Below, one piece after another: positions 1 through 64,000 of a stretch of 64,000 bases of DNA. Within the stretch, counting starts at the first letter, position 1. Each line of letters begins with the position of its first letter. The notes beneath the pieces are model-generated. The model was not told the origin of the DNA, searched no databases, and worked only from the letters and a program-made list of their open reading frames with translations. The position numbers and the translations under genes were made by a program. The stretch covers positions 21,966-85,965 of the forward strand of contig JANYHH010000035.1 in the NCBI GenBank assembly GCA_025359505.1, written 5' to 3'. Source of the stretch: Deinococcales bacterium (GTDB taxonomy: Bacteria > Deinococcota > Deinococci > Deinococcales > JAAFIG01).

Positions 1-2879
1 CCACATCACCACCGCCCGCAATCGCCTCCAGCAGCTTCGCGTCGCGTGACACGCGCACGGCGGCGAGGCGGACTCGAGGGCGGGCGTCTGCGATCAGAAA
101 ATCGAGTTTGAAGCTCGGGTCAATGCTGGCAAGTGCAGCAATGGCGGCGGCGGCAATCGCTTCTCTCGGGTCGTCCAGATGCGGGCGCAGCGTCTCGAAG
201 CTCGCCCCCCAGCGGCACAGCACCTCGAGCGCTCGTGGGAGCTGAGTTTCGGGCAAGCCATCCAGCGCAGCCTCGAGCAATCCGGGGTCAGCCTGCCCGC
301 CCTGCGCGGCCAGCTCGAGCAATTCGGCGGCACTGGTCAAGCTAGCTTTCACTGGCGCGGCTCGAGTAGTTTGCACGGTATTTCGAGTTGCGGCGGCTCG
401 AGTCGGCACGGTGTCTGGCTCAAGCTGCTTGGCTTTGCCTTGATCCTCGAGTGGCTGCCCCTCCAAAGATTTGCCCTCGAGCGAGAGCGCTGCAATGATG
501 CCCGCGCCGTGCTTGGTGACACGCTGTTGGTTCCAACCTGACAACTCGAGCAGGTCGCCTGCGGTTTTCGGCTGTGCCTTCACAACCGCCAGCAGTTCTG
601 TATTGCTGAACTCATCCCCCAGTGGTTCATCCACGTCGCGCAGGTTGTTCTGCTGATGACGGTAACTTTTCAGCGCCCCAATCTGTGCGATGCGCGTCAT
701 CGGTGGCATTCGCGTCACGGCGGCAGGATTGAGCAGCGCGATGATTTCCGCGCCGAACTTCTGGAGTTTCTGCGCCCCGACGCCCGGCGCGAGCAGCAGC
801 TCCTCGAGATTCTGCGGGTTCTGACTCGCCACGCCGCGCAGCACGCCGTCGTTGATGATCGTGCTGGGTGAAACGCGGTCTCTGGCGGCGCGGTGCTCGC
901 GCCACAGGGTCAATTGCGTCTCGAGATCGGATTCTGGCGCGGCCACGGCTCGAGTGGAACTGGTCATTCCACCGCCGATGATCTCGAGCAGATCAGCGCC
1001 GTACTTATCAACTTTGCCTTGACCAATGCCGTTCACCTCGAGCAGCGCCTCGGTGGATGTCGGGCGACGCTCCAAGAGTTCCTGCAAGCTCTTGTCCGAG
1101 AACACGACATACGGCGGCACGCTGTCGCGCTTGGCGCGATCCGTGCGGTACGAGCGCAGCCGCATCTCGAGATCACCCGCGCCACTCGAGTTTGGCGACG
1201 CTGCGCCTGAGCTTGTCACACTCCCCGAGCCTGCCACGACCAATCCCGCCTCGAGTTGCAACGAACCCTCCCTGAGCAGCTTGTCGAGCGCGGCGCTGAC
1301 CGTGATGCGTCCCGCGTCGCGCAAAGCCCCGTACAACGGGTCGCGCATCAAGCCCGCTGCCTCGAGCGTGTTGGACTCCGCGCCCGTGACGAATTTAATC
1401 AGTTTGTCGCGTGACAGTCGCTGACCCCTTGTGGCTGCCAGCAACGCATTGCTGACCAGCGCCGCACCGCGATTGGCTTTCGGCGCTCGAGCTTTGACGG
1501 CTGACAGCCCGCCGATGTTGCCGAGGCTCGGGTCGCAAGCGTCGCACTTGCCGCACGGCGGCAGGCGCTCACCGAAATGCCCGACCAGAAACGCCCTCCG
1601 GCACGCGCTCGTCTCGGCGTAGCCGACGACTTTCTCCAGCGCCACACCCTCGAGCCTGCGCCGCGTGTGAAGCTTGGTGTAATCGACTTGCTTCTTGGCG
1701 TTGACGACCCGAAACGCGCCGCCGTCGCTCTGCAAATTGCCGTTCTCGAGCAATAGTTTCACGGCGACGTTGACAGGCGTGCTGTTGAAGCCCCCCAAGC
1801 GCCCGATCACGTCGCCAGCCGTGCCCGGCGCATCCTCGAGCGAGCGCAGGACTTTACGCACCAGTTGCTCCTCGGGGTAGTTCATTTCCATCAATCGCTT
1901 GCGGGTGATTAAATCCGACAAGCTGTACAGCAGCGCCGCGTGCGCCTCAAAGCCGTCGCGCCCAGCGCGTCCCGCCTCTTGGTAGTACGCCTCCAACGTG
2001 CTGGGCATCGCGTAATGCACGACCAGCCGCACGTCCGGCTTGTCAATGCCCATGCCGAAGGCGACGGTCGCTACCAAACACTCGGTTTGACCAGATAAAA
2101 ACCTGTCCTGCACGGCTGAGCGCTGCTTATCGGGCAGCCCAGCGTGGTACGCCTCGACGCCCAAATACTGCGCGACTTCCTCGGTGCTTTTGCGCGTGGC
2201 GCAGTAGACAATGCACGACCCCGGATGCGCGGCCCGCAGCCCATGCAGCGCCTCGAGCTTCTGCGCTTTCGTGACCGTGTGAGCACTGAAGGTCAGGTTG
2301 CGACGATCGAAACTACCGACCTGCACCAGCGGATCGCGCAGCAGCACCTTGGCGATTTCCTCGCGCACCTTCGGCGTGGCGGTCGCCGTCAGCGCTAAAC
2401 GCGGCGCGGTAATTCCCGACAGCAAATCTCCCAGCAGCAAATAATCGGGTCTGAAATCGTGCCCCCACTGCGACACGCAGTGCGCCTCGTCCACCACGAC
2501 CAGATCAGCTCGCTCGAGCAGACTGCGTGAAGCCCGCGCCCGCTCCGGCGCGATGTAAATCAGTTTGTACTCCCCCGCGTGAATGCCGCGCCACGCGGTC
2601 GTGGACTGCGCTTCACTCAGGCTCGAGGCGAGATACGTCGCGGGCACACCCTTGCGGTTCAGCGCATCCACCTGATCCTTCATCAGCGCGATCAGCGGGC
2701 TAATCACGACTGTCGTCCCGCTCATCAGCGTCGCAGGCAACTGATACGTCAACGACTTGCCGCCGCCCGTCGGCAGCACCGTCAAGCAATCGCGCCCTGA
2801 TAGCACGGCCTGCACGGTCTCGAGCTGCAACGTCCTGAACCCCGCGTGCCCGAAGCGCTTCAATGCCGCCTCGAGCATT
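1..2879 (-). pseudogene. recQ: ATP-dependent DNA helicase RecQ (helicase core, Zn/RQC region, three HRDC-like segments, extra C-terminal HEAT-like tail). The frame is broken by one extra base inside the Walker A codons, and the 3' end runs off the window.
   Basis: Own minus-strand translation. ATG at 2879 gives [40 protein letters not shown], then GQVVDV... and TAG at 2702-2700. Shifting one base restores [10 protein letters not shown]...[20 protein letters not shown]...[19 protein letters not shown] plus three HRDC-like blocks, open to position 1. It is absent from the ORF track because it is split and reaches the window edge. Confidence 0.8.
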
Positions 2880-2987
2880 GCGGGGGTGGGATGTTCGGTG
2901 TTCACAAAATGATTCAACCAGATTTCGCTAGAAAACGCGAATGCTGCGACTCAATCGCTCGAGCCTCGAGACGCTGTAGATTTTTCG

Positions 2988-3116
2988 CCTCTCCCTGCGG
3001 GTGAGGGGGTGAGCGCAGCGAATGCACTTGACTTCGACCTTGACGTTCAAGGGCAACTCGCTGCGCTCGCCCCCCTCACCCGCCTGCGGCGGCCTCTCCC
3101 ACGGCGGGGAGAGGCG
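2988..3116. repeat. Nested palindromic (REP/MITE-like) element: a ~23-bp imperfect stem (3000-3022 / 3059-3082) followed by a second hairpin (3093-3116)
   Basis: gggtgagggggtgagcgcagcga pairs with tcgctgcgctcgcccccctcaccc. gcctctccc/gggagaggc forms the second hairpin. The element lies between the recQ start and the UbiD-family stop. Confidence 0.6.
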
Positions 3117-4980
3117 ATAAGACCGTGCCAGCCTCGAGCGTCGGTTTGTGACCCGTCGGTGACTCGAGCTGCGGGCCCGGAATGCCGTAACGCGGCCATT
3201 TCTCGTCCACGAGCACGACGGTTTTCTTGTCCATGACGATCTTGTCCGGCCACGCTCTGGTAAAGCCCTCAGCGGCGATTTTGCGCGTGCCGTCCAGCAC
3301 CAGCACGGGCCCTGTCGGGCCGGATACGATTGCACCGTCGCGCTCCGGGTCGATGTTGTTTAAGAGCGTCCAGAACGCATCTTCGGGATCGCTCGAGTCG
3401 GTTAGTTCGTCCAGCAGCGCAATCAGGCGAATGCCAGATGCAGCGCTCGAGACCGCTAATTCTCGCCCGATCTCGAGTCCCAGCCCGCCGCGTGTTTTGG
3501 CAACGCTGACGAACCAGATTCCGCCGCCCGCTTGGGATTGGTTGACGATCCCCTCGAGCTGCGGAAGTTCGTGATCCGCTCGAGGTGGCGCGGCCTGCCA
3601 CGCGCTCGAGTCGCCCTCCTCCCAGCTTTTCTGCGTCCCATCAATGATGAGCTTAGAGCCGTAACTGAAACTGCGGCTCGAGTGATCCAATACATCGGTC
3701 GGGCCCTTGGTGAAGACCGTATCTCGCCCCGGCACGCAGTTTTTGAGCGCCTGCCGCCAGAACTCGAGGTTGTCCTGCGGTGGCACGCCCCCCGCGTCGC
3801 AGACCACGGCGACCTTGGTGAACATCGCCTGCCCCAACCCGAACATGCCGTTGGCGACCTTGTACGCGTGCCCGGGATACTGTTTTTTAATCGTCACATT
3901 GACCAAGTTGTGCGCGATGCCGCACGGCGGCAAGTGGTAATCGAATATCTCAGGCAGGATCAATTGCGCGGGCACGAGGAAAATCCGCTCGGTGGTCTCG
4001 ATCAGGTACGCGTCCTCCATCGGCGGGCGGCCGACAATCGTCGCGGGGTAAATCGCGTTTTTTCGCATGGTGACGGCCGTGACGTGAAACAGCGGGTACT
4101 GATCCTCCAAAGTGTAAAAGCCCGTGTGATCCCCAAACGGCCCTTCCACGACCCAAGGTTCGTTCGGGTCAATGTAACCCTCGAGAATAAATTCAGCATC
4201 CGCCGGAACCTCGAGCGAAACTGTGACGCCTTTCACGACATCTTGGCGCTTGTGGCGCAAAAAACCCGTCAGGCTGTACTCGTTAATGCCCGGCACGGGC
4301 GGGATCGGCGCGGTCGCCGCGTAGATCAGCGCTGGATCGCCGCCTATTGCCACGGCCACCTCGAGCCGTTTGCCGAGCTTCTTGGCTTTCTCCAAGTGCC
4401 GCGCCCCAGTTTTGTGGCGCTGCCAGTGCATGCCTGTGGTGTTTTTAGACATGACTTGCATGCGGTACATGCCCATGTTGAACTCGCCCGTTTCGGGGTC
4501 ATTGGTGATGACCAGCGGCAAGGTCACGAACGGCCCGCCATCTTGCGGCCAGCAGTTCAGCACGGGAATTTTAGACAAGTCCACCGCGTCCCCGCGCCAG
4601 ATCACTTCCTGCACGGGAGCGGATTTCACGCGGCGCGGCGGCAGGTTCGCCAGTTCCTTGAGTTTTGGCAGGTTGGACGCCAAGCCCAGAATCCCACCGC
4701 CAAGCTTGATGTCCAGCAGCTTGCGAAGGCGATTCGGGATGTCCTCGAGATCATCCACCCCGAGTGCCCACGCCATGCGCTGCCGCGTGCCCATCAAGCC
4801 GATTACGACGGGAAAGTCTTTACCTGTAACGTTCTCAAACAGCAGCGCTGGCCCGCCCGCTTTCATCACGCGATCCGCGATTTCAGTAATCTCGAGGTCA
4901 CTGGTCACGGCTTCAGTGATCCGCACGAGCTGGTTTTTTTCCTCTAAGAACTTCACGAATGCCTGCACGTCAGCGAACAT
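3076..4980 (-). CDS. UbiD-family (de)carboxylase (menaquinone/ubiquinone-type prenyl-FMN-dependent decarboxylase)
   Basis: ORF track 3076..5073. The family-typical N-terminus MFADVQAFVKFLEEKNQLVRITE starts at ATG 4980. UbiD-like blocks are present: GGPALLFENV, MHWQRHKTGARH, GGDPA, GPFGDHTGFY. The last ~20 codons are encoded by the palindromic element. Confidence 0.85.
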   Translation of the reverse strand: MFADVQAFVKFLEEKNQLVRITEAVTSDLEITEIADRVMKAGGPALLFENVTGKDFPVVIGLMGTRQRMAWALGVDDLEDIPNRLRKLLDIKLGGGILGLASNLPKLKELANLPPRRVKSAPVQEVIWRGDAVDLSKIPVLNCWPQDGGPFVTLPLVITNDPETGEFNMGMYRMQVMSKNTTGMHWQRHKTGARHLEKAKKLGKRLEVAVAIGGDPALIYAATAPIPPVPGINEYSLTGFLRHKRQDVVKGVTVSLEVPADAEFILEGYIDPNEPWVVEGPFGDHTGFYTLEDQYPLFHVTAVTMRKNAIYPATIVGRPPMEDAYLIETTERIFLVPAQLILPEIFDYHLPPCGIAHNLVNVTIKKQYPGHAYKVANGMFGLGQAMFTKVAVVCDAGGVPPQDNLEFWRQALKNCVPGRDTVFTKGPTDVLDHSSRSFSYGSKLIIDGTQKSWEEGDSSAWQAAPPRADHELPQLEGIVNQSQAGGGIWFVSVAKTRGGLGLEIGRELAVSSAASGIRLIALLDELTDSSDPEDAFWTLLNNIDPERDGAIVSGPTGPVLVLDGTRKIAAEGFTRAWPDKIVMDKKTVVLVDEKWPRYGIPGPQLESPTGHKPTLEAGTVLSPLPAVGEAAAGG

Positions 4981-5087
4981 GATTCGCACTCTAGGCTCGA
5001 GGGCGCGGGTCGGGGTAGGGGCGTTCGTATGCCCTCGAGTGACGAACTTGTCAGCCGCAGCACACAAATGCACCTCGAGCCGCCGCT

Positions 5088-6239
5088 TTGACCGCTAGAA
5101 TCGCGGGTGTGACCGCCCTCATCCTCGTGTTCTCGTTCGTTCTGGGCGCATTGGTGGGTTCGTTCACCAACGTGCTGATCTACCGCTTGCCGCGCAAGGA
5201 GAACATCGCCTTCCCGCCGAGCCACTGCCCGCACTGCGATCACCGCTTGGGCGTGCTGGATTTATTCCCGATTCTTTCGTGGTTGTACCTGCGCGGCAAA
5301 TGCCGCTACTGCGCCAAACCGATCAAAGCCCGCTACCCGATCGTGGAACTCATCACCGCCATCGCGTACACGGCAATAGCGTACCGCTTTGACCCGATCC
5401 TCGAGCCGCTGCTGACGGTTGGCTACTGGTTTCTGTTCACGATCCTGCTGGCGGGCAGCGCGATTGATTTTGAAACCTTTGAACTCCCAGATGAGTTGAC
5501 GATTCCCGCGATCTTCGTCGGGCTAGGCATCGCCGCCTTGATCGGCACGTTCCCAGCGGCGCTCGAGGGCGCACTGATCGGCGCTGGACTGATCGGCGCG
5601 ATCAGCGCTTACGGGATGTGGGTGCTGCGGCGATTCCGTGAGCCGCGCCATCCAGATCTGCCACTTGGGTATTTGAACATTCACCTCGCCGCACTCGTAG
5701 GCGCGTGGTTCGGCTGGCCGCTCGGGCTGGCTGCTGGGCTGGCGCTCGGCGCGTACCAACTGATCTTCAAACGCACGTTGCCGCTGCTGGACACAATTTC
5801 GCTCGGCGGCTTGATCGTCACGCTCGCCATCAAAGCAATGAATGGCGGTTTGCCCGACCTCATCACCAGCCTCTCGAGCGGCTTGCAGGGCATGGGCGCG
5901 ATGGCGATTGTCGTTGGCGTCTATTGGTGGCTCGCGCCGCTGATTTCCAGTGATACCGCCCCTGACGACACGCCCGAGGAAGACCTCGACCCGCTGGCGA
6001 TGGGCTTTGGCGATGTCAAACTCTGGGCAGCCTGCGGCGCGTTCATCGGCTGGCAAGGAGCATTGTTCGGCTTGGCAGCGGCCGTGGTCGTCGGCGCGAT
6101 CATCGGCGTGATTGCGTTACTGCGCGGCGGCTCGAGACAGATTCCGTTCGGGCCGTACCTCGCATTGGGGGCGCTCGTGGCGCTGTTCACGGGCAGTAGT
6201 CCGCTGCTCGAGTACCTGCGCGGGTTGGGATTGTTGTGA
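5088..6239 (+). CDS. pilD: Prepilin (type IV leader) peptidase, A24 family
   Basis: TTG start in ORF track. Zn-finger pair CPHCDHRL...CRYCAKPI, several TM helices, and the GFGDVKL aspartate motif. Confidence 0.85.
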   Translation: MTARIAGVTALILVFSFVLGALVGSFTNVLIYRLPRKENIAFPPSHCPHCDHRLGVLDLFPILSWLYLRGKCRYCAKPIKARYPIVELITAIAYTAIAYRFDPILEPLLTVGYWFLFTILLAGSAIDFETFELPDELTIPAIFVGLGIAALIGTFPAALEGALIGAGLIGAISAYGMWVLRRFREPRHPDLPLGYLNIHLAALVGAWFGWPLGLAAGLALGAYQLIFKRTLPLLDTISLGGLIVTLAIKAMNGGLPDLITSLSSGLQGMGAMAIVVGVYWWLAPLISSDTAPDDTPEEDLDPLAMGFGDVKLWAACGAFIGWQGALFGLAAAVVVGAIIGVIALLRGGSRQIPFGPYLALGALVALFTGSSPLLEYLRGLGLL

Positions 6240-6357
6240 TGGCTCGAGGGGTGAGTGGTGAAGCCCAAGCTCTCGAGACGGGGCGCTAAGGTGGAGCAGC
6301 CGAACGCGACTGCGTAAAGTTTGAGTGGGTGAGGCTCGAGGGAAACTGTTTTAAATG

Positions 6358-6425
6358 GTTCCCCTCGAACTTTTTGATAGACCTGTATTCTGGACTGCCA
6401 TCAGTTTGAAGACAGGTTCAAGGCA
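6358..6425 (+). repeat. Copy A of a ~70-nt dispersed direct repeat (partner at 8319-8385)
   Basis: The core cctgtattctggactgccatcagtttgaagacaggttcaagg matches cttgtattctggactaccattagtctgtggacagtttcaagc at 8343-8384, at roughly 75-80% identity by eye. Confidence 0.6.
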
Positions 6426-7045: not shown

Positions 7046-7067
7046 TCAAACCGGAGAGGATAAAGCT

Positions 7068-38632: not shown

Positions 38633-38738
38633 TCGGCTGGTCTCAAAACTTATGACGCTGACCCAAGCACAAGGCGTTCATGGGCGGAGGCTCGAGCTAG
38701 GGTTTTTAACTCACCGCAAAAGTGATAGCGTTTGCCGC

Positions 38739-39122
38739 ATGTCACTGACCCTGACCCTCGAGCCAAGCCTCGAAGAGCGCTTGCGTCTCGAGGCAGAGCA
38801 ACGCGGGCTGTCGGTTGAGCTGTGGCTGGTGCAGGAACTCGAGCAGCGCTTCCAAACGACAGACAAGGCGTCATTGCTGGAGCGTGTTGCGGGCGGTTTG
38901 CCAGCATCGTTTTGGATCTCGTATCGGGCGCTTATCGCCAAGCGCGATGCCGAGGACTTGAGCGATTCCGAGCGCCTCGAGTTGATTGCGATGGCAGATC
39001 AGACTGAAGCGTCGACGCTGCGCCGCGCCGAAGCCTTGGTGGAACTGGCGAAAAGGCGCAGCACAACGGTGTCCGCGTTGCGCTCGCTGTTTGGTTTACA
39101 ACCCATTGCCGTCCAGTCATGA
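38739..39122 (+). CDS. Hypothetical protein with an N-terminal ribbon-helix-helix-like segment
   Basis: ORF track 38652..39122. ATG 38739 gives MSLTLTLEPSLEERLRLEAEQRGLSVELWLVQELEQRF. ATGA overlap with the HNH gene. Confidence 0.5.
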   Translation: MSLTLTLEPSLEERLRLEAEQRGLSVELWLVQELEQRFQTTDKASLLERVAGGLPASFWISYRALIAKRDAEDLSDSERLELIAMADQTEASTLRRAEALVELAKRRSTTVSALRSLFGLQPIAVQS

Positions 39123-39508
39123 CGCAAAATCAAATTCGAGTGCTCGTGGTGACTCGAGCGGGTGGGCGCTGCGAGTATTGCCGATCACCATTGGAATTCT
39201 CGAGCGACGATTTCGCGGTGGAACACATCGTCCCCAAGTCACTGTCGGGATCGGATGAACTGGGGAATCTGGCGCTGTCGTGCCAAGGTTGTAACAGCCG
39301 CAAATTTGTTTCCATAAATGCCATTGATCCAGCGACGGGACTCGAGAGTCGCTTGTACCCCCCACGCTTGGATGATTGGGTCACCCATTTTCAATGGAGC
39401 GATGACGCGACCATACTGATTGGATTGACAGCCGTTGCTCGAGCGACGATTGAACGACTGGAACTCAACCGCTCGAGGGCACGCACAAGCGTCGCGTGCT
39501 GGCGCTAG
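39119..39508 (+). CDS. HNH endonuclease
   Basis: CEYCRSP....EHIVPKSLSGSDELGNLALSCQGCNSRK (HNH with Cys4 Zn). Confidence 0.8.
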   Translation: MTQNQIRVLVVTRAGGRCEYCRSPLEFSSDDFAVEHIVPKSLSGSDELGNLALSCQGCNSRKFVSINAIDPATGLESRLYPPRLDDWVTHFQWSDDATILIGLTAVARATIERLELNRSRARTSVACWR

Positions 39509-47319: not shown

Positions 47320-47724
47320 TCAAGAGACCGTCCCCGCCGATGGCGTGACCGTCGCGTCCACGTAATATGTCGCCCAGACGCCTCGAGCCACGCCGACGAT
47401 CACCGTGTCCTCCAAGCTGCCGTCAAAATGCCGATCACCTGCTGGGACGAGCAGCACCGAGCCAGCCTCGAAGCGTTCGGCTGCACTGATCTCGAGCAAA
47501 TCACCGTAACCCAAATACAACGATCCGCTCAGCACGATCACTCGAGCGTCCTGCGTGTGCCAGTGCGCCGCGTCCCAGAAGCCAGCGGGGATGAAAAACG
47601 CGTAGGTGAAGAGTTCACCGTCAAGGTCGCGGCGACCCTCGAGCAGTGCGTAGCGCGTGCCATCGGGGGCGGCGTCGCCCCACGGGATGGAATCGGGTGT
47701 GAATGCGGCTCGAGGTGTGGTCAT
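47320..47724 (-). CDS. Cupin-domain protein
   Basis: ORF track 47320..47958. ATG 47724 overlaps the ogt stop (ATGA). The sequence has a beta-barrel pattern with conserved His residues. Confidence 0.6.
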   Translation of the reverse strand: MTTPRAAFTPDSIPWGDAAPDGTRYALLEGRRDLDGELFTYAFFIPAGFWDAAHWHTQDARVIVLSGSLYLGYGDLLEISAAERFEAGSVLLVPAGDRHFDGSLEDTVIVGVARGVWATYYVDATVTPSAGTVS

Positions 47725-48257
47725 GCGCGGTTCTCCTGTGCTGAACGAAAGAGGCTCGAGCCAGCAAATTTCGCTTCGTGCTCGAGCAGCCATTTCTTGC
47801 GCTCCAAACCGCCCGCGTAACCGGTCAGCGAACCGTTCGCGCCGATCACGCGGTGGCACGGCAAGGCGAGGCTGATCGGGTTGAGTCCGTTGGTCATGCC
47901 GACCGCCCTGACTGCGGCTGGATTGCCGACGTGCCGAGCCAGCTCGAGGTAACTCCAAGTTTGCCCCACGGGAATCTCCTTCAACGCGTTCCAGACAGCT
48001 CGCTGGAACATCGTGCCGCCGCTATCCACAGGCAGCTTGTGGATAAGGGATAACTCGCCTGCGAAGTACGCGCTGACTGCGCTCGAGAACTGTGACAGGG
48101 CGGCTGGCTCGAGGGTGTAGTTGGCAAAGCGCTTCTCGAGCAGTTTGTGGATGCGAGCGGCGTTGTCTGCGAAGTCGAGCAGCACGAGCTTCTCGTCTTT
48201 CACCACGAGCCGCACCTGACCAATCGGCGTCTCGAGCGTCGCGGATTGCAGCTTCAC
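47721..48257 (-). CDS. ogt: Methylated-DNA--protein-cysteine methyltransferase
   Basis: Active-site PCHRVIG followed by GYAGGLERKKWLLEHE. Confidence 0.9.
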   Translation of the reverse strand: MKLQSATLETPIGQVRLVVKDEKLVLLDFADNAARIHKLLEKRFANYTLEPAALSQFSSAVSAYFAGELSLIHKLPVDSGGTMFQRAVWNALKEIPVGQTWSYLELARHVGNPAAVRAVGMTNGLNPISLALPCHRVIGANGSLTGYAGGLERKKWLLEHEAKFAGSSLFRSAQENRA

Positions 48258-48817
48258 ATCAACCTCGAGCGGCGATACTCGAGCGGGGAGACGCGCATCA
48301 GGCGTTTGAAATTCGCGTTGAAGGCGCTCAGGCTCTGAAAACCGACCTCGAGCGCAATCTCGATCACGGGCTTGGCCGGTGATTCGAGACGGGCACAGGC
48401 GGCTTTGACCCGAGCGCGGTGCAGCACCTCGAGCGGCGTGGCATGGTGGTATGTGCGAAAGAGTTTGTAGAGCTTGGACTCGCTGACCAGTGCTACGGCT
48501 GCCATCTGCGCGACATTTTCAAACTCGAGCGAATTCTGGACGAGTGCTGCGACGAGTTGCGCTTCGCGCTTGGCTGGCTCGAGACCATCGGGGCGGCAGA
48601 GTTTGCAGGCTCTGAACCCCGCACCCACCGCCTCGAGTGGTGTGGCGTAAAAGCGGCGATTCTCGAGTTTCGGCACGCGAGGCGGTTTGCACGATGGGCG
48701 GCAGTAGATTCTGGTGCTGCTGACGCCGACGACGAACAGCCCATCCAAACTGTGGTCGCCCGTGAAAGCCCGCTCGAGCAGTTGCTGGTGATTCATCGCT
48801 GCATTCTGCGCTGCCAA
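48254..48817 (-). CDS. adaA: Ada-type regulator: N-terminal Zn methylphosphotriester-repair domain + AraC HTH
   Basis: Cys ligands in the two motifs CRPSCKPP and FRACKLCRP, then an AraC-type HTH. GTGA overlap with ogt. Confidence 0.8.
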   Translation of the reverse strand: MAAQNAAMNHQQLLERAFTGDHSLDGLFVVGVSSTRIYCRPSCKPPRVPKLENRRFYATPLEAVGAGFRACKLCRPDGLEPAKREAQLVAALVQNSLEFENVAQMAAVALVSESKLYKLFRTYHHATPLEVLHRARVKAACARLESPAKPVIEIALEVGFQSLSAFNANFKRLMRVSPLEYRRSRLM

Positions 48818-48855
48818 GCCGCCGTCTGGCTACCGATTTTCTGCGCGGTAGGCAT

Positions 48856-49365
48856 TCACTGTTGGAACAGGGCTGTATCTTCGGTCGTTTGAAACAAAAG
48901 TGTTCCAACAGCGATCACGTGCTTCAAAGGGATTTTTGGATTGTTGATGTCCTTACTGCCGTCTGCGTGCCATTTGGCTTCCCATTTTGCAAAGAACGCT
49001 TCTAGATCGCTAGGACTGACGCGGTAGATCGAAATGATTTTAATGCCTTCGTAGACGGCGAAGATCCATGGAACGAGACGGTACTTCTGGAGAATTCTAG
49101 GGTTGAGGTGATGGTGCGTGGTGAACTGTTTTTGTTTGAGAACGTTGACCGTTTTCAGTTCGTACTCGTTGCCATTAGCGTCAATCGCATCGTTGCCTTC
49201 TCTGCCCGCGATCACCTTCAAGCCAGTCAGCAACAAGACCTGCAACAGCTTGCCGCCGTTATCCTGAAAAATGTCGTCAATGCCGTGACGGGTGGCGAGC
49301 GCTTGAAACTGCTCCAAGTAAGGAAACAGCTCCTCGAGCTGCTCGAGATCATCATGTGGTCTCAC
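48856..49365 (-). CDS. Type II restriction endonuclease, PvuII family (predicted CAGCTG)
   Basis: Aligns along its length with R.PvuII as I recall it: HGI(N/D)[15 protein letters not shown](I/L)TGL, GREGNDA(V/I)D, EYELK, THHH(M/L)NP, VPWIFA(I/V)Y, DINNPKIP. Confidence 0.85.
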
Positions 49366-49598
49366 GATGCGTCCGCAGTCAGCAGCGCCGCTACTGTGAT
49401 CTGAAAGGCGGTGGCGATCCGCTCGAGGTTATCTATTGAAATGTTGCGCTCGCCGCGCTCGACTGAGCCGATGTACGTGCGGTGCAGACCGCAGAGTTCT
49501 GCCAGCTTCTCTTGCGACACCCCCTGCACTGCCCGCAGTTGACGCAAATTTTTAGACAACACAGCCCGAATTAGGATCGGTGATTTTGCTTGTGGCAC
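49362..49598 (-). CDS. Controller (C) protein, XRE-type HTH
   Basis: 78 aa. The segment [41 protein letters not shown] is typical of R-M C proteins. It overlaps the R gene by 4 nt and is divergent from M, as in PvuII. Confidence 0.85.
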
Positions 49599-49621
49599 AA
49601 TTTTAGAATTCAGTAAGTGAT

Positions 49622-49666
49622 GCTTTTAAGTCTACAGACGATGAGTAGCATTTACTGGTGTAGACT
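49622..49666 (-). promoter_or_regulatory. Candidate C-box operator / R-M switch region
   Basis: Inverted repeat agtctaca (49629-49636) / tgtagact (49659-49666). On the C-gene strand ACTCatcGTCTGTAGACTtaaaAGC resembles GACT/AGTC-type C-boxes, about 30 nt upstream of the C start. Confidence 0.5.
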
Positions 49667-49672
49667 GCGACC

Positions 49673-50707
49673 ATGACCGCAGCGAGCCGCTTGATTCACT
49701 CCCAGCTTCCGGCGTACCGCACAGCGCTTGGTGAGTGTCACTGTGGCGATTCCCTCGAGTTGCTGCGACAGCTTCCAGACAACTCCCTCAACTTGGTGAT
49801 GACCAGTCCACCCTTCGCGTTGCAACGCGAAAAAGAGTACGGCAATCGCTCGCAAGCCGATTACGTCGCATGGCTCAGTCAATTCGCCCGCTTGGTGTTT
49901 GAGAAACTGCGCGATGACGGTAGTTTCGTGCTTGATTTGGGTGGCGCGTATCAAAAAGGCGTCCCCTCGAGAAGCCTATACAATTTTCGTGTGCTGCTCG
50001 AGTTCTGCGACGAGATTGGCTTTCATCTGGCAGAGGATTTTTACTGGTTCAATCCCGCGAAGCTGCCCAGCCCAATCGAATGGGTCAACAAACGCAAGAT
50101 TCGCGCCAAAGACGCGGTGAACACGATCTGGTGGTTCTCCAAAACGCCATTTCCAAAAGCTGACGTGACCCGCGTACTGACCGAGTACAGCGACCGCATG
50201 AAGAAGCTGCTGCGAGACCCAGAGAGTTACTACACCCCGCAAAAACGCCCGTCGGGTCACGATATCGGCAGCGCTTTCGCTAAAGACAACGGTGGTGCGA
50301 TTCCGTCAAACCTGTTGCAAATCCCCAACACCGAAGCCAATACTCAGTATCTCGAGTATTGCCGAGCGGCTGGAATCAAAGGACATCCCGCTCGCTTCCC
50401 CGCGAAGCTGCCCGAGTTTTTCATTCGGATGCTGACCGATCCCAATGATTTGGTGCTGGATATCTTCGCGGGTTCAAACACCACGGGCGCGGTCGCCCAA
50501 GCCGAGGGGCGGCGCTGGCTGGCATTTGAGATTGAGCAAAACTATGTCGCCAGCTCAGCCTTCAGGTTCTTGCAGCGTTCAATGCCTGCCACGCAGGTCT
50601 GTGCAGTGCATCAGCAGGTGCTGCAAGGGCAGACCCTCGAGTTGCCATTGCCGCTGGCTACGCCGCAATCGACGCTGTTTGAATTCCCAGTAGCGGCTGA
50701 CGATTAG
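49673..50707 (+). CDS. DNA methyltransferase, beta-class N4-cytosine/N6-adenine type, M.PvuII-like
   Basis: TSPPF catalytic motif near the N-terminus and DIFAGSNTTG SAM motif near the C-terminus. 344 aa, with PvuII-like gene arrangement. Confidence 0.85.
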   Translation: MTAASRLIHSQLPAYRTALGECHCGDSLELLRQLPDNSLNLVMTSPPFALQREKEYGNRSQADYVAWLSQFARLVFEKLRDDGSFVLDLGGAYQKGVPSRSLYNFRVLLEFCDEIGFHLAEDFYWFNPAKLPSPIEWVNKRKIRAKDAVNTIWWFSKTPFPKADVTRVLTEYSDRMKKLLRDPESYYTPQKRPSGHDIGSAFAKDNGGAIPSNLLQIPNTEANTQYLEYCRAAGIKGHPARFPAKLPEFFIRMLTDPNDLVLDIFAGSNTTGAVAQAEGRRWLAFEIEQNYVASSAFRFLQRSMPATQVCAVHQQVLQGQTLELPLPLATPQSTLFEFPVAADD

Positions 50708-51138
50708 GTCATAAATCCAACCGCGTAGACATCACCCTCGCGCAGCTCCAACCGCAAACGCTGCAAGCTCGAGCCTGCGATGCCGCTGTGCGGACTGCCG
50801 TCAGCCGCGTTGAAAACGCTGCCGTGGCACGGGCACTCGAGCTTGTGGTCGCTGTTGGGTAGTTTGACGGTGCAACCCTCGTGCGTGCAGGTCAGCAGGT
50901 ACGCGCTCAAAAACGCGCCGTTTGCCTCGAGCAGCGTCTTGTCTGGAGAAGCGGGTTTGGGAATGCGGGTCAGCAGCGCGGCGTCATCGACCCAAGTGAA
51001 CTTTACGGTATCCCACTCGCTTTTCAGATCCGCCAGCGGCGCGATTTTCAAGACGAATTCAGCGGCGCGGCTTTGGGTCAGCAGTGGCAGGCTCGAGCCG
51101 CCGAGCGCCAAGGCTTTGAGGACATCGCGGCGCTTCAT
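50704..51138 (-). CDS. Tat-exported Rieske [2Fe-2S] domain protein
   Basis: Twin-arginine leader [10 protein letters not shown], then CTHEGCTV...CPCHGSVF. ATGA overlap with galT. Confidence 0.8.
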   Translation of the reverse strand: MKRRDVLKALALGGSSLPLLTQSRAAEFVLKIAPLADLKSEWDTVKFTWVDDAALLTRIPKPASPDKTLLEANGAFLSAYLLTCTHEGCTVKLPNSDHKLECPCHGSVFNAADGSPHSGIAGSSLQRLRLELREGDVYAVGFMT

Positions 51139-57571: not shown

Positions 57572-57609
57572 AAGTAGCTCGAGTAAACAGAGATTCTTGA
57601 TTTGAGCAT

Positions 57610-58080: not shown

Positions 58081-58231
58081 GGGTGCGTCAGCTTAACGTA
58101 CTCAACTGCGGCGCTCGAGCCTGCGTGCGGTTTGAGGATCGGGGCGCTTCATCCGAATGCGTGTGCTGTACAGCATCTGCATGGCTTCTCGAGCCGCGAA
58201 TTCAATGCTCGGAACGATGGAGCCACACGGT

Positions 58232-58753
58232 TCACTCCTCGCGGCGTCCTTGGAGCATCAACTGGGCAAGTGTGGCGAACGTCGCTTCCACGCCAGCGCC
58301 GGTTTTCGCGCTGGCTCGCGTCAGACCGTACACGTCAAGCGCTGTGATCTGAGCAGCACTGACCTGCCAGTCCACGTGCAGGTCGGCTTTGTTGGCGATC
58401 ATCACGCTGGGAACGCTCGCCCCTCTGGCTTCGACGGTTTCGCGCAAACGCAAGGCGAACTCGAGGGTGTCCGGGCGGGTCGGGTCGAAGACCAGCAGGT
58501 AACCGTGCATGCCGCGCAGGTACGAGCTTTGCACCCGCTCGAACATCTCATCGCCGTTCAAGTCCCAGAGCATCAGTTGCACTTCACCGCTGGGGGTAAC
58601 GACGGTGCGGGCGTCGATTTTCGCGCCGATGGTCACGAGGTAGCGCTCGTCAAAAAGGCCGCTGACGAAGCGCTGAATCAAACTGGTTTTTCCGACGCCC
58701 GGCGCACCGAGCAGGCAAACCTTTTTGTAGATCACTCGTCGATCACCGCGCAC
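58232..58753 (-). CDS. Ras-superfamily small GTPase
   Basis: G1 GAPGVGKTSL, G3 WDLNGDE, G4 NKADL. 173 aa. Confidence 0.85.
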   Translation of the reverse strand: MRGDRRVIYKKVCLLGAPGVGKTSLIQRFVSGLFDERYLVTIGAKIDARTVVTPSGEVQLMLWDLNGDEMFERVQSSYLRGMHGYLLVFDPTRPDTLEFALRLRETVEARGASVPSVMIANKADLHVDWQVSAAQITALDVYGLTRASAKTGAGVEATFATLAQLMLQGRREE

Positions 58754-58774
58754 TCCGTTTCAGGGTTTGGTATT

Positions 58775-60247
58775 TCAGGGCCTGGCGCTGATGATTTTAA
58801 TGCCATCTAGATTAAACCGCGCCACGCCAGCAATCGCGGTCACTCTGACCTGTGCGTTCGCAAGCCATGTTGTAGAGGCGCTGCCTGAAGCCAACAACAC
58901 CCCGTCGTTCGAGAGCTGTAAGCGCACAGTGCTGGGCGGCTCGAGCGCGATCATGGCGCGTTTGAGCACAAAGACCGACTCGAGCGACGCGAACGGGCGC
59001 AGGTTGGAGCGCACCTGCGCGGCCGGCAAGCCGTGCTGCTCGAGTAGCGCAGCAGGGTTGACCCCAAGCGGATCCCGCAGACCCTCGAGTACCCACCGAC
59101 CGTTTTGTTGGCTGACGTTGGTCAGCGCAATGCCGGGTGCGTTTCGCAGCGCTGCAAAGAACCCATCCCACCGCGCCCGCTCGCGTTGAGCGAGCAGCAG
59201 CACCCCGGCGATAGCCACGACAATCACAGCGATTAACGCAGCAACCCGCTGCGGTTGCCGAGGGTGAGTGACCCGTGGCGTTTTCGGTGCTCGAGCGCCA
59301 CGGTAGGCGGCGACCAGTAACTCGGTCAGTTCATTGCGGGTGATTTCAAAATGCTGGGGGTCGCCGTCAAACTCGTGCAGCGCATCATTGGAGTGCTGAT
59401 GGACGCCCTCTAAGAGTTGCGCGAGGCGGTCGCGCAGTTCCTGCGGTGGCGAGCCGCGCACGACGACCGCCACCACGGCCAGCGGCCCGGTTTCGACGTG
59501 AACGGCCAGCTCACCGAGCTGGAACTGATCGAGGTTATCGCTGGTCTGAAAAGAATCCTGCGCGAAATCGCGGATCGCGGTCAGCATCGCCGACACGAGA
59601 CCCGCATCCGGGGTGCTCGAGCCGACGACACCTTCGTGCAGCAACACCAGACCGGTCTCGCGGTGAATCAGGTAGGCTTGTTCGACGCGGTACTCCAAGG
59701 TTTTGAGTAAGACGATCTCACCAAACGAGCGCCCCGTGCGCGACGCCTCGAGCCGCCAACGAAGGGCTTCCAGCGTCAAAGTCTGGTCGATTGCGCGGCT
59801 CAAACTTGCCGAAGCCGCCGCGAGGGTGTGCGCGACCGTGCGCCGAATTGCCGGGCCGAGGATCGGAAAGAGAATTTCCGCCAGCACGAGCGGCGTGCGC
59901 TTGACCGACACGCGCAATGCGTCCTCGACCAGTGGTCGCAGTGACCGTGCGAACTGCGGATCGCGCCCAGCGCGTTCGAGCATTGCCTCAAGGAGTACGT
60001 CTGAGACGGCCGCTGTGCGCCCGGATTCGCTGAGCACCAGCGTCTCGAGCTGAGCGATGCGCTCGCGTTCCCCGGACAGCAGCAATGCCTGCAACTCGTC
60101 CAGACCCGCTGGGCTGAGCTGACCGTCCTCGAGCTGATCTGAGCTGAGTTGCTTGTCCTCGAGCTGATCTGAGCTGAGTTGCTTGTCCTCGAGCCGTTCT
60201 CCCTCAGGGGGCTGCGACGATTCCCGTGCGGGCAAAGCGCGGTTCAC
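58775..60247 (-). CDS. Bitopic membrane protein: acidic repeat N-terminus, cytoplasmic domain (possibly roadblock/LC7-like), one TM, and a periplasmic C-terminal domain
   Basis: GTGA overlap with the upstream coiled-coil gene. TM segment VAALIAVIVVAIAGVLLLA. The block YLIHRETGLVLLHEG...AMLTAIRDFAQDSF. Tandem LEDKQLSSDQ repeats. Confidence 0.6.
   Translation of the reverse strand: MNRALPARESSQPPEGERLEDKQLSSDQLEDKQLSSDQLEDGQLSPAGLDELQALLLSGERERIAQLETLVLSESGRTAAVSDVLLEAMLERAGRDPQFARSLRPLVEDALRVSVKRTPLVLAEILFPILGPAIRRTVAHTLAAASASLSRAIDQTLTLEALRWRLEASRTGRSFGEIVLLKTLEYRVEQAYLIHRETGLVLLHEGVVGSSTPDAGLVSAMLTAIRDFAQDSFQTSDNLDQFQLGELAVHVETGPLAVVAVVVRGSPPQELRDRLAQLLEGVHQHSNDALHEFDGDPQHFEITRNELTELLVAAYRGARAPKTPRVTHPRQPQRVAALIAVIVVAIAGVLLLAQRERARWDGFFAALRNAPGIALTNVSQQNGRWVLEGLRDPLGVNPAALLEQHGLPAAQVRSNLRPFASLESVFVLKRAMIALEPPSTVRLQLSNDGVLLASGSASTTWLANAQVRVTAIAGVARFNLDGIKIISARP
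60125..60194. repeat. 30-bp in-frame tandem repeat, 2.3 copies (gtcctcgagctgatctgagctgagttgctt)
   Basis: Exact duplication. Encodes LEDKQLSSDQ x2 in ORF 58775..60247, and each unit carries CTCGAG. Confidence 0.9.
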
Positions 60248-60834
60248 GCGAGGTCTTCACCATCGCGGCCGATCAGCAACGCCAGATCAGCCAGTGACCG
60301 CGCCAATGTCTGGCGATCCAACTTGTCGCGCTTCAAGACCGTGACCTCGCGCTCCAAAGTCGCTTGGGTGTGCTCGCGCAGCAGTTTTAAGTCAGCCGCG
60401 AAGCGCTTGCCTTGCTCGAGCAGCGCTTCGCGCAGCTCCGCGAGGCTGGTCTCACTCGTCTGCGCCTGCACCGATAGTTTGCGCTCCGCGTCGGTGCGAT
60501 CCATCTCTGCTTGTCTGGCGGTGCGCTCAGCTAACTCCAAGCGGGCATTGGCTTCGGTGGTCAAACGGTCTTTAAGCGCTTGCAGTTCCTGCTTGAAAAA
60601 CCCTTCCAGCGCCGCGATGCGCTCCCCACCCTCGCGCTCCATGCCCTCGAGATCGCCGCGCAAGCGCTCTTCAGAATGGGTCAAACGGCGCTCTATCTCA
60701 CGCGACTGCTGCCCGAAGAGGATATCGCGCACCTTTTCTAGATTGCCAGACTCGGGTAAGGCCTCGCTCGCCACGATCACAGCCAGAGGGGTTTCGGATT
60801 GGCCATTAGCTTTAGATTTACTTCCAGCGGACAT
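60244..60834 (-). CDS. Coiled-coil protein of unknown function
   Basis: 196 aa, heptad-rich and Glu/Arg/Leu-rich, with the motif VRDILFGQQSREIERRL. The start lies 8 nt after the kinase stop. Confidence 0.6.
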   Translation of the reverse strand: MSAGSKSKANGQSETPLAVIVASEALPESGNLEKVRDILFGQQSREIERRLTHSEERLRGDLEGMEREGGERIAALEGFFKQELQALKDRLTTEANARLELAERTARQAEMDRTDAERKLSVQAQTSETSLAELREALLEQGKRFAADLKLLREHTQATLEREVTVLKRDKLDRQTLARSLADLALLIGRDGEDLA

Positions 60835-60842
60835 AACTTGAA

Positions 60843-62477
60843 CTATAGACCAGATTGCTCAACGAAGCCGTGCTTTTCGTGCGCTGGATTTTGACCCGAG
60901 CGTTGAGCGCTTGGCAAGACCAGTGTAAAGCTGCTGCCGATCCCCAGTTGGCTGCTGACCTCGATGCGCCCGCCGTGCAGCTCGGCGAGTTTCTGCGATA
61001 GCGTCAAACCCAAACCGAAGCTGCGGTGATGGGCGGGGCTGTTTCTGGCTTGTGTGAACGGTTCAAAAATCTTGGCGAGGTCATCTTCCAGTAAACCAAT
61101 GCCGGTGTCCGTCACCATCAAGCGCTGCCAGTCTCCGTCCGTAGCGAGGCTCAGGCGCACAGAGCCGCCGCTCGAGGTGAATTTCACGGCGTTGGAGAGT
61201 AAGTTGACCAGAATCTGGCGGACTGAGCGCTCGTCGCCGTAAATCGGGGCTGGATTCGCACCCACCTCGAGCGACAGGATCACGCCGTTTTGCTGCGCGG
61301 CTGTTTTCAGCATCGACAAGCAACTCCGCAGCAACGGTGCGGGGCGGAGGAGTTTCGGCGCGAAGTTGGCGGCCCCCGCACCGAGCTTGGATAGATCCAG
61401 CAGATCGGAAATCAGCGCGAATAGGTGATCGCTGGCCGAGCGAATCTCCTTGGCGAAATCAATTTGGTCTGGGCTGAGCGATCCCAAGCCCGGATCGAGC
61501 AGCAAATCGCAGTAACCGCTGATCGCGTGCAGCGGCGTGCGTAACTCGTGCGTGACGAAATTGAAGAACTCACCCCGAGCACTGAGCGCCTGATCTGTGG
61601 CTTGGGCTGATCGCCTTGCAGCGCTTTCGCTGCGCCGCAGGGCGCTGGTGTCGATGCCCGTGATGACCACGTGACTGATTGCGCCGCTGCCATCGCGCAG
61701 TATTGAACACGACAGCGCCGCGTGTCGCCTCGAGCCATCGGTGGTGAGCCACGATAGTTCGCCGTGCGAGACCAGTGCGCCGCACAGCACGCGGCGCATC
61801 GCCCGCTCGACGAGGCGAGCGGCGACTGGATCGCTGAACAATGCCCAGATCGGCTGATGCTCAGCCATGGCGCTGTCGATGCCCAGCATCTGCTCGGCGC
61901 AAGGGTTCAAGCGGGCGACGCAACCCAACGCATCCGTCGCAATCGCCAGAAAATCTGCGTTTTGCGCGACCGCATCGTAAAAATTTCGCTCCTGCTCCAA
62001 CCGCGCCGCCGATCCGTGCCACTCGAGTTGCGAGGCTATGCCAGCGGCCAAATCTTGCAGCGCCTCGAGATCGCACGGGTCGGTGTGTGAGCGACGCACG
62101 CTGTCGATCACGCAGAGCGTGCCGATCAACTGTCCCTGTTTGGTGATGAGCGGCACGCCGATGTAAAAGCGCAGCTCGGGCAGCGCGGCGAACCGTTCGT
62201 CGCTGCCGACATCCAGCAGCACCTCGAGCACCGCGCTGGGTTGAACGCCAGCCAAGCCGCGAAGCAGGGCGTCCCACTCGAGACTTGCGGACGAGGTGAT
62301 GCCGATGATCGAAAACGGTTGCGCTGAGGCGGGCAGGATCATTGCCACGGGTGCAGCCAATAAGTGCAGCGCGACCCTGAGCAGCGGGGAAAGCGCTGAC
62401 TCTAGTCCTGCATCCAAACGCGCTCGCGCCGACGGATCGGCTGAAGGTGGTCGTCGGGTGGTCGTCGGTGACGCCAT
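60843..62477 (-). CDS. Cytoplasmic sensor histidine kinase (GAF + PAS + HisKA + HATPase_c)
   Basis: H-box FVTHELRTPLHAISGY, plus N/G1/G2 boxes (NLLSNAVKF, DTGIGL, GLGLTL). No TM segment. Confidence 0.9.
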   Translation of the reverse strand: MASPTTTRRPPSADPSARARLDAGLESALSPLLRVALHLLAAPVAMILPASAQPFSIIGITSSASLEWDALLRGLAGVQPSAVLEVLLDVGSDERFAALPELRFYIGVPLITKQGQLIGTLCVIDSVRRSHTDPCDLEALQDLAAGIASQLEWHGSAARLEQERNFYDAVAQNADFLAIATDALGCVARLNPCAEQMLGIDSAMAEHQPIWALFSDPVAARLVERAMRRVLCGALVSHGELSWLTTDGSRRHAALSCSILRDGSGAISHVVITGIDTSALRRSESAARRSAQATDQALSARGEFFNFVTHELRTPLHAISGYCDLLLDPGLGSLSPDQIDFAKEIRSASDHLFALISDLLDLSKLGAGAANFAPKLLRPAPLLRSCLSMLKTAAQQNGVILSLEVGANPAPIYGDERSVRQILVNLLSNAVKFTSSGGSVRLSLATDGDWQRLMVTDTGIGLLEDDLAKIFEPFTQARNSPAHHRSFGLGLTLSQKLAELHGGRIEVSSQLGIGSSFTLVLPSAQRSGQNPAHEKHGFVEQSGL

Positions 62478-62539
62478 GGCACTAGCCTACCAACAGCAGC
62501 CCTGCTGATGGTGATGATTTTAGCCCCGAGCCTCGGTGC

Positions 62540-63514
62540 TTAGACCATGCGCTGGCAAAGTGCGACGGCTGCGTCCCAGCCGATGACGCCGCCGGTCGCG
62601 CCGAGCGCGGAAACGCAGAGCGCACCCGTGGCATTGCCGATGCGGGCGCTCTCGAGCAGGTCAAACCCGCGCAATCGCGCTGCCAGAAACCCTGCGATGA
62701 ACGCATCGCCCGCGCCCGTCCCATCGATCGCTTCGACGCTTGGCGCGAGCACATCGTGATGTTCACCCCCCTTGTCCATCACGAACGATCCCTGTGGCCC
62801 CATCTTCAATGCCACGACCTGCCGCACGCCCAGCGCGAACAGTCCCAGCGCGATCTCTCGAGGGGACGCGCTTTCTGGTAAGCCCACAATGGCTCTTGCT
62901 TCGTGAATGCTCGGGCAGAAAATATCAGTCTGCTCGAGTACGGGTGCGATCAAACTTGACCAGCGCCCCGTCGCGTCCCAGACGCAATCGAGCGAGGTGG
63001 TTATTCCAAGCTCGGTGGCTCGAGCGAACAGGTCACTCGCGGGTTCACCGCGCTCGCCTTCCATCGCGGTCAAGATGAAAAAGCCAGCCAAGTGTAAAAC
63101 CTTGCAACCCCTCGCTTTGAGATCCTCGAGCGGCACGTCACTCGGGGTCAGTTTGGCGTTCGCGCCGATACTGTGCAGAAACGTGCGCTCGCCGTCGGGT
63201 GTGACCGTCACCAGACTCGAGGATGTGCCGGCTGTCAAATCGCGCTTGAGTAAACTCGAGTCGCAACCAACGCGCCTTGCTTCAGCCTCGAGAAAATCTC
63301 CGAAGCCGTCCGCGCCAATCCGTCCAATCAGTGCGACGCCCACGCCGAGCTTGGCGAGGTCGTACCCCGTGCTGGCTGCGCTGCCACCACTGTACAAACC
63401 GATCGTGTCCACCAACTCGAGTTGCCCCAATTGCGGCTGTTTGAGGACAGGACGCGCCACGCAATCGGCAACGACGATGCCCACGCAGGCCACGTCGATC
63501 GTCTCGAGCTTCAC
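62540..63514 (-). CDS. PfkB-family carbohydrate kinase
   Basis: GGSAAST N-terminal motif and the DGTGAGDAFIAGF C-terminal motif. Confidence 0.85.
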   Translation of the reverse strand: MKLETIDVACVGIVVADCVARPVLKQPQLGQLELVDTIGLYSGGSAASTGYDLAKLGVGVALIGRIGADGFGDFLEAEARRVGCDSSLLKRDLTAGTSSSLVTVTPDGERTFLHSIGANAKLTPSDVPLEDLKARGCKVLHLAGFFILTAMEGERGEPASDLFARATELGITTSLDCVWDATGRWSSLIAPVLEQTDIFCPSIHEARAIVGLPESASPREIALGLFALGVRQVVALKMGPQGSFVMDKGGEHHDVLAPSVEAIDGTGAGDAFIAGFLAARLRGFDLLESARIGNATGALCVSALGATGGVIGWDAAVALCQRMV

Positions 63515-64000
63515 GCGCCCCCCATGGAGGCTGGCTCGAGCTTAGCGACGCTGCCCGAGCGCTGACTCTCGAGCGCAGCGGTGAACAGGGCGTGACTGAG
63601 CGCAGCTTCGGTTGGCGTGCCGCACTGGAATCTGGGCGTGTTGCCCGCGACCTCATCGCAGAATGCGGCCCACATCTGCTGGATCGCATCGGTGAAGCCA
63701 AACTCGAAGATGCTCCCCGTGATCGTCGGGTAGACCGTTTCAAACCCAATGTCTTGCTCATGCCACGCCTGCGGCTGACCCGCTGTGTACGGCAATGTTC
63801 GCAGCGTCTTCGGGTGTTTCGTGCTGAACTCCGCGCTCAGCTCACTGCCGATCACGCGAATGAACCACGTGTTTGCCTCGCCCGGCGCGATGCGCTTCAT
63901 GCTCAGGGTCATCGGAAACTCGTAGTGTCCGAACCTCGAGTCCTCGAGCGCCACGCTGGTCAGCAGGTGCGCGTTGTCCCATGTCTCGCACGGAACCATA
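63511..64000 (-). CDS. Gfo/Idh/MocA-family oxidoreductase, C-terminal part (5' end outside the window)
   Basis: The ORF is open to the window edge. The assignment from the C-terminal alpha/beta-domain pattern is tentative. Confidence 0.5.
   Translation of the reverse strand, partial: MVPCETWDNAHLLTSVALEDSRFGHYEFPMTLSMKRIAPGEANTWFIRVIGSELSAEFSTKHPKTLRTLPYTAGQPQAWHEQDIGFETVYPTITGSIFEFGFTDAIQQMWAAFCDEVAGNTPRFQCGTPTEAALSHALFTAALESQRSGSVAKLEPASMGGA

Follow-up and report, generated by a model that had tools for sequence, protein, structure and literature searches.

We found that the hexamer CAGCTG is absent from a 64,000-base stretch of DNA from a Deinococcales bacterium (contig JANYHH010000035.1; hereafter the window, by which we mean the whole 64,000-base stretch). 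The same stretch carries a complete PvuII-type restriction-modification (R-M) cassette, made up of genes for a restriction endonuclease (R), a DNA methyltransferase (M) and a controller protein (C). In our assessment, with a probability of roughly 0.78, CAGCTG is missing because the lineage has long lived with a PvuII-type Type IIP R-M system. An earlier reading of the window (the original prediction) had ascribed the missing site to long-term restriction avoidance, and our analysis supports that reading with two caveats: other palindromes are purged just as thoroughly, and loci of distant relatives that lack the cassette are also depleted in CAGCTG.

CAGCTG is absent from the window

An exact search of both strands returned 0 copies of CAGCTG over positions 1..64000, confirming what the original prediction had claimed. 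Dinucleotide-preserving shuffles of the window gave an expectation of 26.6 ± 5.2 copies, and Markov models placed it at 20.6 (order 0, in line with the earlier zero-order figure of about 20), 26.3 (order 1), 50.8 (order 2) and 24.4 (order 4). Since these expectations are high, the sub-words of the site (the pentamers CAGCT and AGCTG) are common and the full hexamer alone is missing. The family of hexamers NAGCTN displayed the same gap, with AAGCTG at 32 copies, GAGCTG at 49, TAGCTG at 4, CAGCTC at 35 and CAGCTT at 26, against 0 for CAGCTG; every AGCTG is indeed preceded by G, A or T, as had been noted.

Synonymous codons were then shuffled within each of the 62 called genes (90% of the window; n = 200 shuffles), a procedure that keeps the proteins and the per-gene codon usage intact. 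The shuffled sequences held 26.8 ± 4.5 copies (range 18–38), so that about 27 copies would be expected where none was observed (Poisson probability of zero, ~2e-12). At the level of dipeptides, none of the 97 Gln-Leu pairs is written CAG-CTG (22 expected from codon usage). The five codon pairs that the original prediction had listed as substitutes are those in use: CAG-CTC (25), CAA-CTC (23), CAA-CTG (21), CAG-TTG (8) and CAA-TTG (8). The deficit of CAGCTG is significant under every null used here, whether base composition, sub-words or coding content is preserved.

The window carries a PvuII-type cassette

The cassette occupies 48855..50707 and is inserted between the stop codon of a Rieske-domain gene and the upstream region of an ada-like gene. 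The M gene (49673..50707, plus strand; 344 amino acids) is divergent from the C gene (49362..49598, minus strand; 78 amino acids) and the R gene (48856..49365, minus strand; 169 amino acids, GTG start), with candidate C-boxes in the 74-base-pair intergenic region between M and C.

The R product matched the Pfam family Endonuc-PvuII (PF09225) over its full length (5.4e-66; profile positions 2–155 of 155) and aligned without gaps to PvuII in the Protein Data Bank (PDB) at 62% identity (1.5e-66). In the PvuII structures we take D58, E68 and K70 to be catalytic and D34, H83–H85, N140 and N141 to contact DNA; all of these, together with N35 and K143, are identical in the R of the window, and S81, replaced by T, is the sole change among the residues checked. 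Among the scanned representatives of the Genome Taxonomy Database (GTDB), the best match to R reached 73%, and its closest relatives were found in Deinococcales metagenome-assembled genomes (MAGs). The M product is a PvuII-like N4-cytosine DNA methyltransferase (Pfam N6_N4_Mtase, 1.5e-42) that is 65% identical to M.PvuII over 315 amino acids (PDB 1BOO; E = 8.7e-149) and keeps the SPPF motif as TSPPF.

The C product is a helix-turn-helix protein (Pfam HTH_3, 8.7e-15) that carries GLHRTYIG, and its best PDB matches were C.BclI (1e-15) and C.AhdI. An HRTY recognition helix places it beside the HRTY class of C proteins, defined along with the PvuII C-boxes GACTcatAGTCtgtaGACTcaaAGTC in earlier work (PMC2175313). 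The candidate C-box operator TACTcatCGTCtgtaGACTtaaAAGC (49622..49647, minus strand), which would be bound by C, agrees with the symmetrised PvuII C-boxes in 21 of 26 positions, the critical TGTA spacer among them, and the block is kept in two relatives described below (L088 and L091) and in a Deinococcales MAG (L002). The stop codon of C and the start codon of R overlap by 4 nucleotides (GTGA), an arrangement typical of C-controlled systems (PMC2997769).

The locus at 48856-50707, which the original prediction had called PvuII-like, is thus, by sequence, a complete and intact PvuII-type Type IIP R-M system. From the 62–65% identity and the conserved contact residues, we infer that both R and M are specific for CAGCTG; present-day enzymatic activity of the cassette is likewise presumed from its sequence.

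The cassette has co-diverged with its flanks

Relatives were found by a search with the product of the neighbouring galT gene, and about 10–20 kilobases (kb) were available for each (only this much; loci are given below by labels such as L088). The same cassette sits at the identical junction, between the stop of the Rieske-domain gene (50704..51138 in the window, minus strand, its stop codon overlapping that of M) and the upstream region of the ada-like regulator/methyltransferase gene (48254..48817, minus strand, followed by ogt at 47721-48257), in three other lineages: L088/L089/L090 (from GCA_965193395.1), L087 and L091. These are 81–83% identical to the window at the DNA level, in alignments that run unbroken through the cassette.

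Synonymous divergence (dS) from the window was 0.65–0.85 for R and M, in line with 0.72–0.93 for galT and 0.60–0.67 for the Rieske gene. In broader ranges, too, the dS of R and M (0.45–0.85) matched that of galT and the Rieske gene (0.55–1.2). The ratio of nonsynonymous to synonymous divergence (dN/dS) between orthologues was 0.07–0.09 for R and 0.07 for M, much as for galT (0.08–0.11). The cassette also shows the k-mer signature of its host, with 8 copies of CTCGAG in 1.85 kb and none of the sites that the host avoids. The shared junction, the flank-like dS, the low dN/dS and the host signature indicate that the cassette co-diverged with its flanks under purifying selection. On these comparisons we take the cassette to be old and functional, which agrees with the earlier claims that the system is not a very recent arrival and that it is or was active.

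One of the lineages carries a damaged copy. In L087 (~6100-6260, corresponding to 49422-49754 of the window), two short repeats CTCGAGSGRATCGCC, of which one lies within C and the other in the 5' portion of M, bound a deletion that has cost M its N-terminus, C two thirds of its length and the cassette its C-boxes. The open reading frame of R is intact, and this is a recently inactivated copy of the cassette.

In the R orthologue of L088 (10441-10944), Asp stands at the position of PvuII His84 (TTHDH, not TTHHH), and recognition may be altered or lost.

PvuII-like cassettes were also found in the Deinococcales MAGs L002, L003, L055 and L013, where the cassette is kept in flanks that are not syntenic with the window; these loci are therefore silent on the age of the insertion at the window locus.

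Sister lineages with an empty site retain CAGCTG

Two sister lineages at a comparable distance lack the cassette at the same junction. L092 and L093 have an empty site with a clean junction (...TAA followed directly by TGCCTATC...; L092 4700-4720). L085 and L086 are also empty, and L085 (11515-11545) has a 17-nucleotide duplication at the junction (GTTCACCTGATGCC ... GTTCACTTGATGCC) that could be the scar of a cassette loss or an unrelated duplication.

We compared observed CAGCTG counts with order-1 Markov expectations in both groups. The four cassette lineages held none (window 0/26, L088 0/7, L087 0/5, L091 0/5; total 0/43), whereas the two empty-site sister lineages held 6 against ~13 expected (L085 5/10, L092 1/3). 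Under equal rates, all 6 copies would be confined to the 24.6 kb of empty-site DNA with a probability of 5e-5. At alignable positions, CAGCTG in L085 is met by CAACTG or CAGCCG in the cassette-bearing lineages; in the more distant relatives L082 and L083, the five L085 CAGCTG positions had no alignable match.

On a wider scale, we pooled 80 loci taken from GTDB genomes with a gene for a PvuII-like R. CAGCTG reached 113 copies in them against 366 expected, many loci having zero, and the composition-matched CTGCAG reached 256 against 366 expected, which is the pattern reported by Rusinov et al. 2015 (PMC4687349).

Restriction avoidance as the probable explanation

We propose that the resident system itself emptied the genome of its target. 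The homodimeric endonuclease R would cut unmethylated CAG^CTG, the N4-cytosine methyltransferase M would protect CAGCTG, and the C protein, by binding the C-boxes, would delay and limit expression of R. Under this arrangement each chromosomal CAGCTG would put the cell at risk if methylation fell behind (after replication or repair, for instance) or if M and R lost their balance. The exchange of DNA between cells with unlike R-M systems would make each site a risk as well. Selection would favour mutations that abolish the site, for the most part synonymous changes (CAG-CTG to CAA-CTG or CAG-CTC, for example), and long residence of the system would drive CAGCTG to zero. We infer that selection, rather than mutational drive, is the cause. 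That genomes come to avoid the sites of long-lived orthodox Type II systems is a published rule (Rusinov et al. 2015, PMC4687349). The wider clade probably shares this history. Related Deinococcales MAGs carry PvuII-like genes in other genomic contexts, which makes it likely that some of the depletion is older than this insertion.

Several observations weigh against this explanation. The empty-site sample is small, amounting to 6 sites. More distant relatives in which this locus lacks the cassette are CAGCTG-poor themselves (L082 0/7, L083 1/7, L094 2/6, L095 0/6), with 3 copies in total against ~26 expected, so that the comparison with relatives lacking the system, which the original prediction had proposed, came out divided: the empty-site sisters fit the prediction and the distant loci do not. 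The galT, ada and ogt trees conflict and look star-like, and gain and loss at the empty sites were not separated by them. About 12 other palindromic motif classes are depleted in the window by at least 94%, and a Pfam scan that covered every called gene except those of the cassette and the V-ATPase core turned up no further R-M gene in the 64 kb. Because the distant cassette-less loci are depleted as well, avoidance of CAGCTG is probably clade-wide, partly older than this insertion and not caused by it alone.

These same distant loci lend some weight to an alternative that we hold to be unlikely, namely that the avoidance was inherited and the cassette is a passenger. The clade would already have been nearly free of CAGCTG, and permissive to gain and loss of the cassette without self-killing. 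Its sites would have been lost to PvuII-like systems that were present before or in neighbours, or through selection for DNA able to cross restriction barriers during exchange. Besides the three copies in the distant relatives, such a history would accommodate the PvuII-like cassettes in non-syntenic contexts, the patchy presence and absence at the junction among lineages of roughly equal distance, and L087, whose cassette is dead and which yet has 0 CAGCTG (0/5). Avoidance as the trace of lost systems, or of systems in related strains, has been documented (PMC4687349). The passenger reading does not account for the difference between the empty-site sisters (6/~13) and the cassette lineages (0/43), and the strong purifying selection on R and M over the whole divergence implies function rather than passive carriage.

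Many other palindromes are depleted in the window

A systematic motif scan returned 16 motifs (~12–13 non-redundant classes) depleted by at least 94%, nearly all of them palindromic: GCGCGC, CGCGCG, CCWGG, GGWCC, GGYRCC, GAGCYC/GRGCTC, TGCGCA, CCGCGG, CAGCTG, CTGCAG, GACGTC and TTCGAA. Relative to the synonymous-codon shuffles, the observed/expected counts were 3/201 for CCWGG, 1/107 for GGWCC, 0/85 for GGYRCC, 0/84 for GCGCGC and 2/89 for CGCGCG. CCGCGG (0/42), GGCGCC (0/41), GAGCTC (0/32), TGCGCA (0/26), CTGCAG (0/20) and TTCGAA (0/15) were absent. By the same measure, control palindromes were normal (GGGCCC 12/12, CACGTG 14/13, GAATTC 15/15, AAGCTT 10/10). With so many palindromes purged and no cognate system for the others in the window, a missing palindrome alone is no pointer to a nearby system.

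The purged set differs between lineages. CCWGG, at 3 observed against 113 expected in the window, stood at 48/36 in L085 and 10/20 in L087. GGWCC is avoided in the clade of the window but reached 29/50 in L083 and 25/56 in L082. TGCGCA was at 0/49 in the window versus 23/16 in L083, a relative in which GCGCGC, CGCGCG and TGCGCA are all near normal. Such differences between sister lineages suggest a rapid, lineage-specific turnover of restriction specificities, and they fit changing R-M repertoires rather than one general process.

A tentative reading of this landscape, to which we give a minority share of belief, is that the CAGCTG hole is one output of an unusually efficient, clade-specific form of genome editing that has zeroed a dozen or more palindromes, in sets that vary by lineage, and driven CTCGAG up. 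Weak selection of the ordinary kind would not suffice for it. In a genome that is present in several copies and proficient in recombination, restriction cuts might be repaired from copies that lack the site, which would amount to biased gene conversion, and a methylation- or repair-linked drive of the kind proposed for the HIP1 palindrome of cyanobacteria would create and maintain CTCGAG.

More doubtful still is a general, system-independent editing of palindromes in the clade, perhaps through cleavage-initiated biased gene conversion in a polyploid, highly recombinogenic genome or through a repair bias. That ~12 palindromic classes are so strongly depleted, when non-palindromic controls and certain palindromes occur at normal counts, would be expected of such a process, as would the opposite push on CTCGAG (15 times its expectation) and an elimination that is total, where partial depletion is usual. 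Yet the purged set is motif-specific and differs between sisters (CCWGG, TGCGCA), as it would if it came from different R-M repertoires. The CAGCTG pattern tracks the presence of the cassette, and no candidate machinery for general editing was identified.

Mutational decay driven by methylation, in which a methylated C in CAGCTG would mutate faster and the site would erode without selection, is very improbable. Sites with 5-methylcytosine are known to decay in this way, and some of the loss of CCWGG might have come about by it. The M of the cassette is a PvuII-type N4-cytosine enzyme, however, and deaminated N4-methylcytosine is uracil, which is repaired normally. Replacements at orthologous positions include CAG to CAA, a change at the third base and not at the methylated C, and decay would leave the purifying selection on R unexplained. 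Chance, base composition or codon usage can be dismissed as having a negligible probability, given 0 copies against 18–38 in every one of the 200 synonymous shuffles, an order-4 Markov expectation of 24 and P ~2e-12.

Two side observations concern other palindromes and a phage. AGCGCT is about 2-fold over-represented in the window (83 versus 34–47; 73 versus 36 in synonymous shuffles), and the other NGCGCN palindromes (TGCGCA, GGCGCC, CGCGCG) are absent or nearly so. A prophage-like segment of L095 (1-8118; terminase, integrase) bears the signature of its host, with 52 copies of CTCGAG and 0 of CAGCTG, CTGCAG, GAGCTC, GGCGCC and CCGCGG. It also has 0 copies of GGWCC versus 22 in the adjacent host DNA, and the phage appears to avoid GGWCC, a site that its host does not avoid.

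CTCGAG is over-represented across the clade

The original prediction had used CTCGAG, which has the same base composition as CAGCTG, as its yardstick. The composition-based figure of about 20 was correct, but CTCGAG itself is highly abnormal, with 410 copies in the window (one per 156 base pairs) against 26 expected, an excess of ~15-fold. Coding sequences hold 351 copies versus 67 in the synonymous shuffles, distributed over the three codon phases as 213/55/83, and non-coding DNA is the richer of the two, at 9.6 copies per kb against 6.1 in coding DNA. The dipeptide Leu-Glu occurs 306 times versus ~131 expected from amino-acid frequencies (~2.3-fold) and is written CTC-GAG in 213 of the 306 cases (70%), when only 25% of Leu codons are CTC. 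The CTCGAG excess seems to extend to the make-up of the proteins. The flanks of CTCGAG show a weak preference for GCTCGAGC.

The enrichment is clade-wide (L082–L095, L002, L055), over GC contents of 46–63%, and is present in a prophage as well. Between the window and L085, L087, L088 and L091 (81–83% DNA identity), CTCGAG is kept at 63–89% of orthologous positions, versus 35–43% for all hexamers. A Pfam scan of the window found no methyltransferase associated with CTCGAG, and our literature searches on CTCGAG hyper-abundance found no published description. Phages dense in CTCGAG were sought in IMG/VR and set aside, since most matches were due to chance or came from high-GC phages in which GAGCTC occurs too, a different signature.

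By analogy, CTCGAG looks like a HIP1-like highly iterated palindrome. It resembles cyanobacterial HIP1 (GCGATCGC, PMC5861425) in being a short, GC-rich, over-represented palindrome that occurs outside coding DNA as well as in every codon phase and is conserved at orthologous positions above background. It differs from HIP1 in being a 6-mer rather than an 8-mer and in belonging to a Deinococcales clade rather than to cyanobacteria. The clade could offer a second, independent system in which to study the origin of highly iterated palindromes.

Other genes of the window

Genes for a V-type ATPase, trmFO (Pfam GIDA family), DUF3809 and DUF3248 are likewise present in the window, and such gene content suggests Deinococcota. 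A homologue of its galT product at 64% identity is labelled Deinococcales. A small gene for an HNH endonuclease (39119-39505; 129 amino acids; Pfam HNH, 1.7e-12), without an obvious methyltransferase partner, directly follows an open reading frame of 156 amino acids that has no Pfam match (the pair spans 38652-39505). The clade is uncultured, is probably Deinococcales and comes in part from glacier-fed-stream and other environmental metagenomes.

Comparison with known systems

Restriction-site avoidance by long-lived orthodox Type II systems was reportedly described by Gelfand and Koonin in 1997 and by Rocha et al. in 2001. The phenomenon is textbook knowledge, and the window is a new and unusually clean case of it. 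The cognate system is, as far as its sequence tells, intact, its age and constraint can be read from orthologues, and sister lineages provide a pristine empty site. The genome sampled so far has no target sites, which raises the question of what keeps M under selection. We rate the wider context as more valuable than the single case, since many sites are avoided completely and the avoided set varies between sisters, and the overall palindrome landscape of this genome merits a separate study.

The cassette is like the PvuII system of Proteus hauseri (pvuIIM/pvuIIC/pvuIIR, CAG^CTG) in having three genes with M divergent from C-R, a C stop codon that overlaps the R start, an HRTY C protein and a candidate operator of the GACT-N3-AGTC-TGTA-GACT-N3-AGTC type (21/26). 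Unlike that system, which is plasmid-borne in an enterobacterium, it is chromosomal in a Deinococcales MAG. Its R differs from R.PvuII in the GTG start, in S81T and in a C-terminus longer by ~10 residues. In the operator the outer half-boxes deviate (1A, TACT; 2B, AAGC), and the coding sequence of the cassette has taken on the k-mer signature of the host, 8 copies of CTCGAG included.

As in known restriction avoidance (PMC4687349), the palindrome of the resident system is under-represented, residence appears to have been long, and traces of present or lost systems are found in relatives. The window departs from the usual pattern in that depletion is total (0 of ~27) rather than partial and is one of about a dozen simultaneous purges. 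It departs from it also in that the cassette is polymorphic for presence and absence at the same locus among sister lineages, which makes for an unusually direct natural comparison.

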